Shown here: positions 1,741 to 64,000 of the stretch, one piece after another
Layout: each line of letters begins with the position of its first letter
Position numbering within the stretch: position 1 is the stretch's first letter
Virus record (IMG/VR): IMGVR_UViG_3300034053_000021
Span: 203 to 64,202 of that record
DNA length: 64,000 nucleotides
Reading direction: 5' to 3' (one strand)
Origin: a virus
Taxonomy: Duplodnaviria > Caudoviricetes
Position numbers and translations under genes: made by a program
The notes under the pieces: generated by a model
The model's input: only the letters and a program-made list of their open reading frames with translations
Told to the model about the DNA's origin: nothing
Databases searched by the model: none

Positions 1741-2227
1741 CGCGTTTCCCTTCAAAAGTCGGTGCTGGCTGGACGGCGACCCCCAACCCGTCGTTGCAGG
1801 CGCGACCTCCTTCGGCGGCGGCCTGAACTCGGGCGTTGGGGGCCTTACGCAGCGCCAAGTCCAGCCGCGCCAGTGCATTCCATGCCGCATGTGCCGCGTG
1901 GTGCAGTCCGGTGTCCGGGTCGCATTCCTCGCCAGTCGCCTCTCGCATCAGGTGCCGCAGCATCGCGTCCGTGTAGCGGCGTTCTCCGTCCGGCACTTCC
2001 ATCCAGCCGTTGTCGGTGTACTTGTTTGCGCCGTAGGTGCCCACAGCGCCAACCTCTTGCAGCGCCCGTGCAAACCCACATAACACCAACCCGAGCCGGT
2101 TCTTTCCGGCATCCAGCTTTGCCCCGGCCTCGTTCGGCTTCTTGCCGTTCGGGTCGGCCTCCAGTACCCCGAATGTCTCGGCTCTGTGCTGGTCGTCGGC
2201 GGTCATATGCATTTGGTTCTCCATCAT
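1730..2227 (-). CDS. dATP/dGTP diphosphohydrolase-like protein (DUF5664)
   Basis: GAKLDAGKNR..L...ALQEVGAVGTYGANKY..NGW...YTDAMLRH...DPDTGLHHAAHAAWNAL; the tail reads through attC5. Confidence 0.88.
   Translation of the reverse strand: MMENQMHMTADDQHRAETFGVLEADPNGKKPNEAGAKLDAGKNRLGLVLCGFARALQEVGAVGTYGANKYTDNGWMEVPDGERRYTDAMLRHLMREATGEECDPDTGLHHAAHAAWNALARLDLALRKAPNARVQAAAEGGRACNDGLGVAVQPAPTFEGKRDGC
1781..1841 (+). mobile_element. Integron attC site 5 (last of the array)
   Basis: CCCCAAC-CCGTC-GTT(G)CAGGC...GCCTGAAC-TCGGGC-GTTGGGG. Confidence 0.88.
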
Positions 2228-2230
2228 TCA

Positions 2231-2683
2231 TCAGTCCTCAAAAGTCTGCGCTGGCGATACGGCGCCGACTTTTGCGAGAACATCTCGCGCAATCTGGTTG
2301 CCAATGCTGTTTCCGTAGTGCGGTTCATTGCCAAGCCTCGCCAGCTTTTCGAGTGCCGCAGCAAGTTCGTCGCGCTGCTGCTTCATAGCGAAAAGCTCTT
2401 CCTGAGTTTCTACCAGAGCTGCACCGTTGATGTCCGCCGTCTGCTCGGATGCGGCGAGTTTATATTCAGCATCGCTCAAATCTTTTACAACGGAATCACG
2501 CATCTCCTTTGTTGCTTCCAGTTCAGCGCGCATGTGAGTAACGGCAGCCTCTAGGTGGATGATGTACTCTTGCTTATTCTTAAGTTCAGCGCGTAGTGAT
2601 TCGATTTCATGATGCAAAGGCTTTGTTGCCTCGTCGATTTCTCGCTGCCGCATCTGCCTAGTCAGATCTTGTGTTTCAATCAT
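2231..2683 (-). CDS. Hypothetical coiled-coil protein
   Basis: 150-aa heptad-rich ORF with GGAG SD. Confidence 0.75.
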   Translation of the reverse strand: MIETQDLTRQMRQREIDEATKPLHHEIESLRAELKNKQEYIIHLEAAVTHMRAELEATKEMRDSVVKDLSDAEYKLAASEQTADINGAALVETQEELFAMKQQRDELAAALEKLARLGNEPHYGNSIGNQIARDVLAKVGAVSPAQTFED

Positions 2684-3377: not shown

Positions 3378-3646
3378 GGTTCGATCTCCAACTGGTCAGA
3401 AGAGAAACACTTGTTGTCTTGGTACACCTGCCCGGTCACAGCGTCGACGAGAACGTCGTGCCCGCGGTATTTGCAGGGGTACATGGCCCGGACCACGCGC
3501 TCGCGGTTCATGATCTTGACCGTTCGCTTGACGGTCTTCTCCTTGCGGTTGCGCATGTCGGTCAGCCGCGCCGAGCGGATCACCCGCTGCGGGTAAGTCT
3601 CGGAGTCGAAGTCCTTGAATACGATAGTGCGAACGGTTGTCATCAC
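3374..3646 (-). CDS. Hypothetical protein
   Basis: 90-aa ORF in the coupled operon. Confidence 0.7.
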   Translation of the reverse strand: MMTTVRTIVFKDFDSETYPQRVIRSARLTDMRNRKEKTVKRTVKIMNRERVVRAMYPCKYRGHDVLVDAVTGQVYQDNKCFSSDQLEIEP

Positions 3647-4086
3647 ATTACTCCTTGCGCGGTTGGTCTACGTCTAACCTTTTGGGTCATAGCCTTCTCT
3701 ACAGGCCATCGCCGTAAAAATATTCGTGCGAAAAGCGTCGAGTGCTTTATTCCGAAGCGGCGTCCCCATGCCGCCACAGTTTTTGTTTCCCCTGCGTAAG
3801 TGACTTGTAGGTTTCCACGTCGGTTGTTACCTTGTTCGAGCATATCCGCCCACCGACAATTTTCAACATAGTACCCTTTGGAGTTATCCACTCTGTCTAA
3901 GGTTTTACCTGTAGGCTTAACCCCCATGTCGGCCAAAAAATTCTCGAACACAAGCCAGCGATCGCAGACCGTGATGCCTCGGCCACCATACCTACTATAG
4001 TTGTGGGCTTTATGGTTATTGCACCGCCGCAACATATTACGCCAGCAGTCATACGTCGGGGTTCCAGTCATACCATGGGTCTTCAC
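3643..4086 (-). CDS. HNH homing endonuclease
   Basis: THGMTGTPTY..W..ML.RC...YGGRGITVCDRW..FENFLADMG...TLDRVDN..GY..ENCRWA. Confidence 0.92.
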   Translation of the reverse strand: MKTHGMTGTPTYDCWRNMLRRCNNHKAHNYSRYGGRGITVCDRWLVFENFLADMGVKPTGKTLDRVDNSKGYYVENCRWADMLEQGNNRRGNLQVTYAGETKTVAAWGRRFGIKHSTLFARIFLRRWPVEKAMTQKVRRRPTAQGVM

Positions 4087-57540: not shown

Positions 57541-59409
57541 TCATTTAGCTTCTGAATACCGGAACCCGGTGTGGGCTTCGGCGGACAACGGTACATCTGG
57601 CCACCACGTAGGCGAAAGGCAGAACACCTCGTAGGCGGTCTTGGCTACAACTTCGGCATCCGCCTCGGGCACGACATAAACCGCTTCGTCGTGCACCGAC
57701 AACACCAGCCTCACGTTCGGGTGACGCCTGCACACCTCCAAAGACTGCTCCATGACGATCGCCCGCGCGATGGACTGCACCACGTTCTCCACCACTTTCC
57801 CCCCATATATGCGGGTTCCAGTGAATTTGCCTGCGTCGTACACCCACTCGTCGCCTTGCTGCCGCAGGTTCGGATACTTTATCACCAACCCATGCGGCAG
57901 CACAAGCCCGGAGTTACAACTTACTACCAACCCTGCGGGGTCGAGGGGCTTGTCGTTCCCCTTGCGGATGGCCGGCAACAGATCCTGCGCGGCTTTCCAC
58001 AACTTCACCACCTGCTTGTGCGCGCTGCGGTAGTCGACAACAGCAGACTGCGCCTCATCTTCAGTCATAGGGGGCAGCCCCCACTGGCGCGCGGTTTCTT
58101 TGAACTTTGCCCCACCCATGCCGAATCCGCAGGCCAACTTCAACACTTTTCCAAACTGGCGCTCCTGCACATCCGCCTTGGTAATCGGGCGCCCATATCG
58201 TTTGCTGGCCATGTAGCAGTAGATGTCCGGACCTTCCTTGCGGTCAGCCTTGCGATACACCTCAACCGCCTCGGTCTCGCCGGCCAAGCAGTCTACCACC
58301 CGCGCTTCGATGTTGGCCGAGTCGACGACCACGAACATGTGCCCCGGCGGCGCGCACAGCGAGCTGCGTATCGCACCTTTCTTTGGCATGTTCTGGAGGT
58401 TGAGCTTATCCCCGCCACTGAACCGATGCGACTGGTCAGCTCCGCAGTAATTGAGATACACCGGCAGCGGCCCTCGGCTAGCGATGCCGATCAGCCGCTC
58501 GACACGGGTCTCTGCGATGGTGCTCTTGTTCCCCAGACGCGCGGCCACCAGGGTTTGCACATCCTCATCCTCGTGCTCCAGCAGCTCGGTCATGCCCTTA
58601 TCCGTCTTGGCGAACGCCCACGTCACTTTGCCTGTAGTGGGGCTGATCTTCGTCGGCGGGGATACCCCCAGCGACTGCAGTGCCTCGGCGAATTTGGGAT
58701 TGCTCATCAGCACGTCACGGTCGACACCCCCGGCAGCCAGCAGCTTCTCTCGCTTGGTGCGCAGCTCCGCCAGCTCACTACGCAGTAAGATCGGGTCAAG
58801 CAGGATCTCCGGCTCGGTGAACATACGAATCGTGCGATCTATGAGCTTCAACTCGAAATTGGGGAACGTCGTGATCTGCCGCTCAAGCGGGGCGTAGAAC
58901 CCCTGCGACAACAGCCGGAAGATGCCAAGGGTCAGCTCACAGTCGTTCAGGCAGTACTCCCCATACCGATACCATTCCTCGGGGGTGAAGTCCTTGCGGC
59001 GCTTGCCTAGCGCATTGAGCACCTCGGTGCCCTTCTCCCCGATGTCGAACAACTTTGCCAACTTGGCCAGCGACCCGCCCGCAGAAAACCCGCCCACCAC
59101 CGCCCGGGACATGGACAGCGTGTCCAGCCACAGCGCCGGGTTGATGTTGAAGCGCCACGCCAGTATGGCGCCATCGAAGTGCGTGTGGTGACAGAGGATG
59201 GCGACCTTGTGCCAGTCTTGCTGGGCTGCCCACTCACGGAAATCATCCGCCTCCATCCACGACTGCCGCGCCCGGCCGGCGACTTCTTCGTACACCCCCA
59301 CACCGATAACCTCGAACCGAGGGTCACGGATGTATGCCTCAGTGGTCATCTTGGACAAGGAATACTCCTTGTCGTAATACGTTTCCAGATCGACAACGAC
59401 TATTCGCAT
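57541..59409 (-). CDS. polA: Family A DNA polymerase with 3'-5' exonuclease
   Basis: VDLET exonuclease; DSANIEAR (motif A); RQFGKVLKLACGFG (B); VHDE (C). Confidence 0.95.
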   Translation of the reverse strand: MRIVVVDLETYYDKEYSLSKMTTEAYIRDPRFEVIGVGVYEEVAGRARQSWMEADDFREWAAQQDWHKVAILCHHTHFDGAILAWRFNINPALWLDTLSMSRAVVGGFSAGGSLAKLAKLFDIGEKGTEVLNALGKRRKDFTPEEWYRYGEYCLNDCELTLGIFRLLSQGFYAPLERQITTFPNFELKLIDRTIRMFTEPEILLDPILLRSELAELRTKREKLLAAGGVDRDVLMSNPKFAEALQSLGVSPPTKISPTTGKVTWAFAKTDKGMTELLEHEDEDVQTLVAARLGNKSTIAETRVERLIGIASRGPLPVYLNYCGADQSHRFSGGDKLNLQNMPKKGAIRSSLCAPPGHMFVVVDSANIEARVVDCLAGETEAVEVYRKADRKEGPDIYCYMASKRYGRPITKADVQERQFGKVLKLACGFGMGGAKFKETARQWGLPPMTEDEAQSAVVDYRSAHKQVVKLWKAAQDLLPAIRKGNDKPLDPAGLVVSCNSGLVLPHGLVIKYPNLRQQGDEWVYDAGKFTGTRIYGGKVVENVVQSIARAIVMEQSLEVCRRHPNVRLVLSVHDEAVYVVPEADAEVVAKTAYEVFCLSPTWWPDVPLSAEAHTGFRYSEAK

Positions 59410-59570
59410 CTCGCTCTCCAATAGTTATGATCGGCGGGTTTGGTACATCGCTGCCCGCCGGCAGCGTTATGGAGTAGGGAGGTGCCCACTACTCACCCCT
59501 GACAAACACCTCCCTGCAACGCTCGTGCCCATGTACCCTGCGGCCGTTGGACGTTGGCAATGGAATGCCG

Positions 59571-61518: not shown

Positions 61519-61712
61519 TTCATCTCCATCGCTCGGATTCCTGTTTCAATCGGACCATCCTCTTCTGGTTCATGATTCCATGCCACCCTCGCGGCATCAC
61601 AAATCGCCTTGTTGTACATAGCCTTACCAAAATCAAGTAGTGCGGCAGGATCATCGTCTAGGATGAATCCTGTTTCCCCAGTGTATATCCTTCGGATGTC
61701 GTCGTTGGTCAT
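61515..61712 (-). CDS. Small hypothetical protein
   Basis: Coupled ORF. Confidence 0.65.
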   Translation of the reverse strand: MTNDDIRRIYTGETGFILDDDPAALLDFGKAMYNKAICDAARVAWNHEPEEDGPIETGIRAMEMK

Positions 61713-62056
61713 AGTCCAAACACTCCTAAAGTAACAACCTTTTTCCTCGCCTTGTAAGCCCGGATTCGTTCAGCCGGAGTCAGCTTATCTCTTGGCCTGA
61801 CATTTCTCCGCTCACCTAGCGCCCAGATCTTCGTAACACCTCCTTGTCCTTCTGGATACACGTACTCGCAGATGTAAATAACGCCCAACTTCCTGAGTAC
61901 CTTTATCCACCGCCTAGATGTCTCAGCTGTTACGCCTACACCTTCGGCAAGCTGCTCTGCTGAAGATGGGGAGTGGTCAAGGTACTGAATGGCTTGCTTC
62001 AAGTGTGCCGGCAGGTAGGCCAGTGCTGCCTTTGCGATGGCTTCTTGCGATGTCAT
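61709..62056 (-). CDS. Winged-HTH DNA-binding protein
   Basis: SAEQLAE.VGVT.ETSRRWIK.L; IYI. Confidence 0.7.
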   Translation of the reverse strand: MTSQEAIAKAALAYLPAHLKQAIQYLDHSPSSAEQLAEGVGVTAETSRRWIKVLRKLGVIYICEYVYPEGQGGVTKIWALGERRNVRPRDKLTPAERIRAYKARKKVVTLGVFGL

Positions 62057-62190
62057 AGGGTACTACCCACAATGCTTTTAATCGAGGCCAGAATGGCGCA
62101 TATTGATCCAAATAGTATGCGAAAGTTTTTGCTCCATTCATGGCTTAAAGCTATTACCCCACATAGAAGAAGAAGTTGTTGGTCTGTCAT
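62053..62190 (-). CDS. Small membrane peptide (45 aa)
   Basis: MTDQQLLLLCGVIAL...; ATGA-coupled. Confidence 0.5.
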   Translation of the reverse strand: MTDQQLLLLCGVIALSHEWSKNFRILFGSICAILASIKSIVGSTL

Positions 62191-62208
62191 GTCGTGTTTC
62201 TCGGTGTA

Positions 62209-62216
62209 GTTATGCG
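62209..62216 (+). mobile_element. Inferred primary insertion point (G|TTATGCG) of the first cassette
   Basis: Complementary to the attC6 R'' (CGCATAAC) over 8 bp; no attC hairpin on its left. Confidence 0.55.
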
Positions 62217-62569
62217 ACAGTGGGTGTCGGATAATTTAAGTTATGCATCGTCATCAGTGTGCGCAGATCGCAGAGCGCATCAAAACACTGCTCCCTGTCG
62301 TAGCCGTACTTGTGAAACTGCTCCAGCGTATCAATCGCCAGATTCACCGCGCGTTCGCAAAAAGTCGGCGCTGGCGAGACGGCGGGTTCTTCGTCGTAAA
62401 TCGGTTTCCCGCAGCTATCGCACTGGTTCCAGTCCGTTTCCTCAATTCCGTGGCCGGTGCTGCAAGTGCAAAACGGCTCGTCGCCCTCTTCGTCTTCCTG
62501 CATCATCAGCCACTCTTCGTCATAGTCTTCCGGTGGCGGCTGCGCCCCTATCGCGCTTGGCCCCATCAT
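62210..62569 (-). CDS. Cassette gene with zinc finger
   Basis: CTC, CDSCGKPI; TAA stop lies inside the core site. Confidence 0.7.
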   Translation of the reverse strand: MMGPSAIGAQPPPEDYDEEWLMMQEDEEGDEPFCTCSTGHGIEETDWNQCDSCGKPIYDEEPAVSPAPTFCERAVNLAIDTLEQFHKYGYDREQCFDALCDLRTLMTMHNLNYPTPTVA

Positions 62570-62862
62570 TTCAGCCCCGCCTCTGCTCTGAGTTGCCGCA
62601 CTGCCTCATTGTGTGCGTCTGCGATGTATTCAGCGTTCGGCATTCGCATAATCTCAGTCAGGTCTTTCGCGTACTTGCGGATAAAGTTGCGCAAGTCAAT
62701 TACATCTTCGGCGCAGCAATCGTGTTCCTCTGTCTTTATCTTCAGTGCCGTCTCAAGCCGGTGAATCTCTGCCGCACACTCTCCGTGCGGATCGCCATCT
62801 GGCTGTTCATCAAACATTGCCTTCTCCTCTCGCGCCTCGCGCATTGCCTGTCCGAAATTCAT
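62566..62862 (-). CDS. Cassette gene, coiled coil
   Basis: GDPHGECAAEI.RL; GGAGG SD just after the attC6 core. Confidence 0.75.
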   Translation of the reverse strand: MNFGQAMREAREEKAMFDEQPDGDPHGECAAEIHRLETALKIKTEEHDCCAEDVIDLRNFIRKYAKDLTEIMRMPNAEYIADAHNEAVRQLRAEAGLK

Positions 62863-62878
62863 CTCTTCCTCCAAATCC

Positions 62879-62946
62879 GCATAACACGTCGCTCAACACG
62901 GACGCAGGCAATAAAGCCGCCTGCGCCGGTTAGCTAGGCGTTATGC
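62879..62946 (+). mobile_element. Integron attC site 6
   Basis: GCATAAC-ACGTC-GCT(C)AAC(A)CGG(A)CGCAGGC...GCCTGCG CCG GTTAGC-TAGGC-GTTATGC; three extrahelical bases. Confidence 0.92.
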
Positions 62947-63251
62947 CTCGCGTACAGTGGAGTCCATGCCCCGCTGTTTTTTCGCACATACTCGATCTGT
63001 TCATCCATGATCGGGCCTTCGTAGCATCCGTCGCTGCAAAAACGAATCCATGCAACAGGCTTTGCCGTCTCGTCAGCGCCGACTTTTCTGCACTTGTCGC
63101 GCATCAGTTCAATCATCCGCTCGCGCTCCTGCGCTCTATCACTGTGGTGCTCAGCCGTTGCCCAGCAATCACGAAGATCCCTCAGCGCTACCGTGTCGTC
63201 AGTCGGGCAGTACTTCGGGTTTCGTGCCCTCATCCAGTTGTCGAAGGTCAT
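62934..63251 (-). CDS. Cassette gene (KPVAW...WTPLY module); stop codon inside attC6
   Basis: Start MTFDNW; ATGA-coupled. Confidence 0.75.
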   Translation of the reverse strand: MTFDNWMRARNPKYCPTDDTVALRDLRDCWATAEHHSDRAQERERMIELMRDKCRKVGADETAKPVAWIRFCSDGCYEGPIMDEQIEYVRKNSGAWTPLYARHNA

Positions 63252-63973
63252 GGCATCACCACCTTGCTTTCCGCTGGCGGTTTCGGCAACGGCATCCAAG
63301 TTGCAGCGGCCATCTTCTGGTTGCTGTGCCAGAAAATCCCGCCAATCCAAGCGCCGTGAACAGTCTTGCCGCCACGGACAAATAAAACCTCTTGTGCTTC
63401 TTGCGGAAGTTCATCAACCACGTCGCGCCAGCGCGGGGCATCTTCAAGTCGCTCAACCAGTCCAGCCACAAACCCGCCCTGTTCAAGTTCTTCCGTCGTC
63501 ACTCCGGTGCAAGCATTCACGCAGGCCGCAATCCTCCGGGCATCGGTTTTCCGTGGATTCACCATATCGAGCAATTTGCCAACACCTTCGTCGTCCCTCA
63601 GTAAAGAGGTGGAAAGCAGGTTATTTCGGTACATGTATTCCGCAGCCTTTACCGCTACGTCATTGGCCACCGATCCCTTGTTTATTTGCCTGCACAGGCG
63701 GTTAACCAATGCGGCAAGGTTCTCAATCGTGTCGATCAAACCAAGCACCGTCGCAGGGTTCGCCGCTGCGTAGAACTTCGCCAACTTGAGCGAATCATCT
63801 GCCGCGTAATACTGGTCGCAATCAACGGTTGTCACACAATACTTCTCACCGTCCTCGCTAATGTGGCCAACCGCTGCCGCAAGTTCGTCCTCCGCAGGGT
63901 CAAGCCACGCGGTATCGCAGTTGCTCCAGCCTTTCACGTCTTCGGCCAGTGCTTTCAGTTTTCCCAGTTCCAT
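63248..63973 (-). CDS. Cassette gene, Ead/Ea22-like N-terminus + DUF551-like C-terminus
   Basis: AKFYAAANPATVL.LI; NARRIAACVNAC-like motif; W....ELP...WMPLP.PP. Confidence 0.8.
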   Translation of the reverse strand: MELGKLKALAEDVKGWSNCDTAWLDPAEDELAAAVGHISEDGEKYCVTTVDCDQYYAADDSLKLAKFYAAANPATVLGLIDTIENLAALVNRLCRQINKGSVANDVAVKAAEYMYRNNLLSTSLLRDDEGVGKLLDMVNPRKTDARRIAACVNACTGVTTEELEQGGFVAGLVERLEDAPRWRDVVDELPQEAQEVLFVRGGKTVHGAWIGGIFWHSNQKMAAATWMPLPKPPAESKVVMP

Positions 63974-63995
63974 TCCTCGTCCTTTCATCGTTAAG

Positions 63996-64000
63996 GCATA
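63996..64000 (+). mobile_element. Probable start of attC site 7, truncated by the window edge
   Basis: AAGGCATA at the edge is complementary to GTTATGCCT at 62940 if the next two bases are AC. Confidence 0.55.

Follow-up and report, generated by a model that had tools for sequence, protein, structure and literature searches.

We analysed a 64,000-nucleotide stretch of DNA from a virus of the Caudoviricetes (hereafter the window), which comprises bases 203-64202 of a single 64,202-base IMG/VR contig, record IMGVR_UViG_3300034053_000021. Our analysis indicates that the region from position 62203 through the window edge to around position 2240 is very probably a phage-type integron without an integrase gene, made up of an attI recombination site and an array of gene cassettes with their attC sites. 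The closest published kind of element is the phage cluster of attC sites lacking integron integrases (CALIN; PMC9892861), and the route put forward in an initial annotation of this sequence, seeding of the array at a non-canonical genomic site (attG), does not fit. Loci collected for comparison are designated by the prefix L.

The array spans the two ends of the record. The first 125 bases of the contig are identical to its last 125, forming a direct terminal repeat, and the record is classed in IMG/VR under direct terminal repeats with a CheckV completeness of 100%; the end of the window therefore runs via 77 bases that lie outside it into window position 1. The repeat copy within the window (63876-64000, identical to contig 1-125) falls inside a cassette open reading frame (ORF) and not in an attC, and as this is unique coding sequence the closure is no artefact of repeated hairpins. 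The 77 bases are gene-free and complete an attC hairpin at contig 121-183, the first five bases of which are the last five of the window. The initial annotation had supposed that the genome closes across the window edges and that a single array of at least seven cassettes crosses them, and both suppositions were confirmed, with the array extending from about 62241 over the edge to 1841 and including seven attCs, the edge-spanning one among them. It had also allowed for an integrase gene (intI) or an attI in the unseen gap. There is no intI in the 77 bases; a putative attI is present, but it lies within the window at 62203-62242.

All seven attC hairpins, of 61-87 nt, share a single polarity in which the minus strand of the window is the bottom strand. 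When folded as DNA the minus strands form an R stem closed by AAC/GTT and an L stem whose 3' arm has single-base bulges, with a short unpaired spacer between the two stems; this is the bottom-strand architecture of the aadA1 attC of plasmid R100, fetched as a control for fold and strand. A strand-specific scan for this architecture was validated on R100 and on bacterial arrays, and matched the R100 aadA1 attC solely on the strand antisense to aadA1. In the phage genome it found six of the seven attCs, on the minus strand only and with scores of 8-9.5, while no other site in the whole genome scored 8 and whole-genome shuffles gave 1-7 matches in total at any score. These six are the edge-spanning A2 (63996-64000 in the window, its remainder at contig 126-183), A3 (474-543), A4 (798-863), A5 (1103-1189), A6 (1415-1484) and A7 (1781-1841, attC5 of the initial annotation). 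The seventh, A1 (62879-62946, previously attC6), was missed by the scan but has the same kind of fold (-21 kcal/mol, z = -3.8); like the bottom strand of R100 aadA1 it is bulged on its 3' arm, and it has some extra bulges. A strict RYYYAAC...GTTRRRY regular expression and two energy-based hairpin finders were dropped as too noisy.

The boxes flanking each cassette are complementary at 27 of 28 variable positions, whereas the two boxes of one attC agree at only about 15 of 24, and such complementarity of cassette ends is the signature of cassettes that were once circularised. The hairpins themselves recur elsewhere: by blastn A1 is 97% identical to hairpins of the integrase-bearing phage loci L185, L191 and L232, and A2 shows 100% identity across 57-60 nt with sites in two phage loci, L165 and L169, and in two loci of bacterial metagenome-assembled genomes (MAGs), L037 and L084.

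Polarity also identifies which end of the array is proximal to attI. Bacterial control arrays were fetched via the motif of the edge-spanning attC, and in all eight of those with an intI gene the strand that shows the bottom-strand architecture is also the one that encodes intI, the attCs being upstream of the gene; the same polarity holds for 128 of 144 attC matches in 80 integrase-bearing viral loci. With the minus strand as bottom strand, the attI-proximal end of the window array must be that at 622xx, which is where the initial annotation had placed the origin of the array.

It is at this end that the predicted attI core is found (62203-62242, minus strand). In a blastn comparison of the window array with the collected loci, these 40 bases matched L201:7875-7914 at 37 positions (92.5% identity), a segment from which the gene of an integron integrase (TIGR02249) lies 60 nt downstream. 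A search pattern built from L201 had one match in the window, at 62209-62242 on the minus strand with no mismatches, with none expected by chance as judged from shuffles, and in an alignment of 15 attI sequences the window holds every invariant and near-invariant column. In order to define such junctions we located in each locus the bare box at the array terminus, which closes the cassette nearest to intI, a procedure that recovered the class 1 attI1 junction in the control locus L211. In 21 integrase-bearing loci the terminal box is followed by the conserved core, with the start of intI 60-160 nt beyond, and in integrase-bearing phages the same core always lies between the first cassette and intI. 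The exact subtype of the window core occurs in only four other IMG/VR contigs, all with intI.

The initial annotation had described an array without attI that starts at a bare G|TTATGCG at 62209. The box is indeed present and there is no hairpin to its left, but it does not mark a cassette start. The box with its G at 62209 (62209-62215 on the plus strand, a second GCATAAC box) is the second conserved attI box and occupies the place of the GCGTAAC repeat of attI1, about 31 nt from the crossover. The true junction with the first cassette is an identical GTTATGC box 31 nt to the right, at 62240-62246, which puts the crossover at G62240|T62241 on the plus strand, and the box at 62241 is complementary to the R'' box of the attC at 62879. 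Judged by homology and position, the putative attI thus directly adjoins the first cassette at a G|TT crossover. A comparison of the distal ends of arrays with an integrase revealed no sequence in common, so that the native right half of the attI is undefinable from them.

Beyond the core there is no integrase. When all six frames of the complete 64-kb genome were searched with PF00589 and TIGR02249 there were no matches at E <= 1, tblastn with IntI1 and the L201 IntI returned only noise and no IntI-like fragment, and no tyrosine recombinase was found anywhere in the complete genome. Past the core, the similarity to attI-intI loci extends for no more than a few bases. In the position where intI would begin there is instead a hydrophobic ORF of 45 amino acids (62053-62190, minus strand, from the ORF list), whose ATG is 50 nt from the crossover as compared with 60 nt for intI in L201, and which has no Pfam or PHROG match. 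Further to the left small unannotated ORFs follow on the same strand. The array therefore lacks the adjoining intI of a complete integron, and combines at least two attCs with the absence of a nearby integron integrase, as does a CALIN.

Full-length integron integrases are nevertheless encoded by phages that carry related arrays. Using an alignment of the IntI proteins of bacterial loci as query, we found at least 80 viral contigs (L161-L240) encoding such integrases with 55-66% identity to bacterial IntI, and in these contigs the arrays lie upstream of intI on the same strand. Two of the integrases scored 466 and 476 bits on TIGR02249, for which the cut-off is 265. All five integrase-bearing records that were checked are phages, of which two have direct terminal repeats at 100% completeness and one is a provirus (96%); an HK97-type capsid gene is present in four of the five.

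A second phage resembles the window in having an attI core and no integrase. The complete phage record G001 (locus L006) has no integron integrase, and its four-hairpin array ends at a bare box perfectly complementary to the start of the preceding cassette. This box is followed by an attI core of bacterial type, different from that of the window and common to five bacterial loci, in three of which intI begins 106-139 nt downstream. A search for backbone relatives of G001 returned only G001 itself. The retention of attI by integrase-less phage arrays may thus be a pattern rather than an accident. Two further features of L006 were observed: an 11-nt unit occurs in three direct copies immediately upstream of the first hairpin (L006:5880-5990), the last copy forming the 5' R box of that hairpin, and a tyrosine recombinase of 227 amino acids encoded about 2 kb upstream is not an IntI (16 bits on TIGR02249).

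At the far end of the array the last attC is abutted by a gene for a DUF5664 (dGTP_diPhyd_N) protein (1836-2240, minus strand; Pfam PF18909, 7.9e-26), which lacks its own stop codon, its ORF (1730-2227) reading through A7. The initial annotation had taken this as the point where ordinary phage genes resume and its natural end as the site at which the array was seeded. A search of viral contigs with the DUF5664 protein yielded 24 loci. The copies in L004-L010 are 79-90% identical in amino acid sequence, have the same kind of R-box end and are flanked by attCs, with clear hairpins on both sides in L004, L005, L006, L007, L009 and L010, and these contigs share no other backbone gene with the window phage; one further copy lies in the integrase-bearing locus L190. 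The presence of attC-flanked copies in the arrays of unrelated phages implies that DUF5664 is a mobile cassette gene and that its end is a cassette boundary, an R box, and not a target in the backbone. We therefore count it as an eighth unit of cassette type, and it is probably the oldest one, having lost its own hairpin. That hairpin would be expected at approximately 2240-2310, on the far side of the gene, and is not present there; a vestigial hairpin upstream of DUF5664 (around 2264-2310) was considered and is too weak to claim. Looking to the right of DUF5664 for fossil cassettes, in the form of complementary box pairs or array homologs of the neighbouring genes, gave only noise.

The seven cassettes carry their genes on the minus strand. 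Cassette c1, proximal to attI (62241-62940, plus-strand numbering as for c2 and c3), has the overlapping ORFs 62566-62874 and 62210-62569, with the last 10 codons and the stop codon of the second supplied by the attI core. Cassette c2 (62941-64000, running 52 bases past the window end) has ORFs 63248-63988 and 62934-63260, and both its PHROG matches and its codon score are on the minus strand. That each of these two left-hand cassettes holds two overlapping ORFs, as previously noted, is evident in the ORF list. Cassette c3, of which 1-537 is the window part, encodes a DNA adenine methyltransferase with its ATG at 454 (Pfam PF05869, 2.5e-9; phrog_111, 2e-41). The remaining cassettes are c4 (538-857; ORF 456-782), c5 (858-1183; zinc-ribbon ORF 867-1085), c6 (1184-1478; ORF 1150-1365) and c7 (1479-1835; ORF 1489-1741), closed by A4, A5, A6 and A7 respectively. 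Besides the methyltransferase, three cassette proteins match PHROG families, again on the minus strand. The G+C content is 53-55% in c1-c2 and about 62% in c3-c7.

All of these genes, on the combined evidence of Pfam, PHROG and codon scores, are on the attC bottom strand and read towards attI. Assigning the coding strand by ORF length is ambiguous in G+C-rich viral arrays and codon scores calculated per locus were used instead; in the window they prefer the minus strand for c2-c7 and for DUF5664. Among 110 cassettes of the bacterial control arrays 75 are canonical in orientation, 10 reversed and 25 ambiguous, and for 59 of the 72 cassettes scored in phage loci with an integrase the genes point towards intI and attI. 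The window array thus departs from the usual arrangement of promoterless top-strand genes that read away from attI and are expressed from the Pc promoter. No promoter-like site, including Pc-like ones, was found in 61700-64000, and as there is no excess of promoter-like or terminator-like sites within the array the cassette genes are probably expressed by read-through of a phage early operon.

A 24-nt motif was also noted in and around these units. Allowing up to four substitutions it occurs 14 times in 1.16 Mb of collected loci, usually where a gene unit begins, right behind the R box of an attC, in both phage and bacterial integron arrays. The window occurrences are at 2240-2263 (-), 1754-1777 (-), 62360-62383 (-) and 63064-63087 (+), and others are in L005 (2794), L007 (2206), L008 (3243), L009 (2040, minus strand), L037 (7049), L098, L104, L114 and L142. 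In the window the motif is also found within two cassette ORFs and in the 3' end of a coiled-coil gene just upstream of DUF5664. Neither the motif nor the array as a whole has an Rfam match.

In comparison with known systems, the phage CALINs described by Qi et al. (2023, PMC9892861) likewise have several attCs, no integron integrase and a DNA methyltransferase cassette. In that work attCs from virulent phages were recombined by IntI1, and 17 phage CALINs were reported with no attI described at their ends. The window array differs from these in being bounded by a predicted attI, in having seven sites and one decayed unit with all genes on the attC bottom strand, and in that its attCs and attI are common to phage genomes with full integron integrases. 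The phage integrons of IMG/VR (L201, L165, L168, L181) have the same attI core at the first cassette and the same attC family, with hairpins up to 100% identical, the same attC-attI polarity and genes reading towards attI. In those phages a TIGR02249 gene lies 60-160 nt past the crossover whereas the window has the unrelated 45-amino-acid ORF, and the backbones of the phages with these integrons are unrelated to that of the window phage. The layout is also shared by the class 1 attI1 (R100; L211), where the crossover box abuts the first cassette. In both, a repeated box ending in TAAC lies about 31-32 nt towards the intI side with a short imperfect inverted repeat in between, and the attC bottom strand is on the intI strand, but there is no sequence identity beyond the boxes, and the class 1 cassette genes read away from attI, driven by Pc, while those of the window read towards it.

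The attG route, in which an array without attI began when IntI inserted the first cassette at a GWT site, with backbone on one side at 62209 and on the other at the end of a backbone DUF5664 gene, draws on the bare G|TT at 62209 without a hairpin to its left, on the genome having no intI, and on the report of Loot et al. that IntI1-3 can use genomic GWT sites and insert cassettes at them across the genome (bioRxiv 10.1101/2022.09.11.507474). Sites of that kind contain only the GWT motif and resemble neither attI nor attC (bioRxiv 10.1101/2022.09.11.507474). The window has the same G|TT junction of a cassette with non-hairpin DNA, but its flank is related to attI: the 31 nt right of 62209 are not cassette DNA but the conserved core that stands next to intI in relatives. 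At the other flank, DUF5664 has an attC on either side in other arrays and is all that the window phage shares with those contigs, and were the two proposed flanks joined, DUF5664 would continue in frame into the 45-amino-acid ORF without a stop codon. We consider this route very unlikely. The attI-like 40 nt could otherwise be a passenger in or beside a cassette, the array going on leftwards into 62200-60000 with its hairpins decayed. Decay does happen, as in the DUF5664 unit, and the small ORFs left of the core continue on the same strand; however no attC-like hairpin or complementary box pair was found left of 62203, where G+C falls to 48-51%, and in the 21 integrase-bearing loci such a core follows the terminal bare box and precedes intI, so that this explanation appears improbable.

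An assembly artefact, in which reads were joined chimerically across attC repeats common to several genomes of the sample, would be in keeping with the near or complete identity (97-100%) of some hairpins to sites in other phages and bacterial MAGs and with the difference in G+C between c1-c2 and c3-c7. The shared stretches are only about 60 nt, however, which is below the 125-base terminal overlap, presumably a reflection of the assembly k-mer size, and that overlap lies in unique coding sequence and not in attC. Moreover the seven sites have one polarity, the end boxes of each cassette match, and differences in G+C between cassettes are normal for integrons, all of which makes such an origin barely credible.

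Under the preferred reading, that of an attI-bounded array without its own integrase, cassettes would have been inserted, and possibly still are, at G62240|T62241 by an IntI supplied in trans. This IntI could come from a resident L201-type prophage, the attI of which is nearly identical, or from the host's own integron. The intI gene may have been lost by deletion or replacement just past the core, or the module of attI and array may have been acquired without it. A number of points weigh against this reading. An attI site is as a rule specific to its cognate IntI, and this phage has no such enzyme; the function of the core as attI is deduced from its homology and position. The subtype consensus is built on few sequences and the wider alignment is more divergent, no variant arrays were seen at the window attI and there is no clean distal junction near 2240. 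Nor did the viral, GenBank-phage and metagenome collections yield any backbone relative of this phage: the neighbouring helix-turn-helix protein had no match in viral contigs, PolA had a single match of 29% identity in viral contigs, at best 37% in GenBank phages and, among metagenomes, matches solely to short contigs no longer than 3.9 kb, and the 18-nt left flank had one match, by chance. As no backbone relative was found, loss of intI and acquisition without it are indistinguishable.

More tentatively, integrase-less phages, including this apparently non-temperate 64-kb phage, might keep a working attI in order to borrow the integrase of a resident prophage or of the host. As parts of the same proposal, which as a whole we regard as somewhat doubtful, they would load and swap early-gene cassettes, probably for counter-defence, as non-autonomous members of a distinct class of phage integrons, and the cassettes of this class would be built in reverse, each with its hairpin placed upstream of a gene that is directed towards attI and intI.

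To our knowledge, published integron cassettes in phages amount to a handful of attC clusters, none of which has a known entry point. The window offers a defined candidate for one, in an attI core shared with phages that carry full integron integrases, and the system is directly testable with a cognate integrase, the 40-nt site and any of the seven attCs. This suggests that integrase-less phage arrays are not debris and may be platforms served in trans. If they are, the cassette pools used by phages and by their hosts may be linked, those of the phages including methyltransferases and other early genes. When an array ends in a bare core-site box, annotators should look for an attI before invoking a non-canonical insertion.

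Two other genes of the phage were noted. The family A DNA polymerase (57541-59421, minus strand) has its best GenBank-phage matches, at 37%, in Rhizobium phages of the RHph_TM3 group and Pseudomonas phage Rollin and is 74% identical to one metagenome contig of 1.9 kb, and identities this low to sequenced phages indicate a backbone without close sequenced relatives. An ORF of 147 amino acids (3643-4086, minus strand) has homologs of 39-49% identity located 1-1.2 kb downstream of intI in L182 and L231. These are not inside the arrays, and the gene tends to neighbour phage integrons, lying in the window on the other side of the array.

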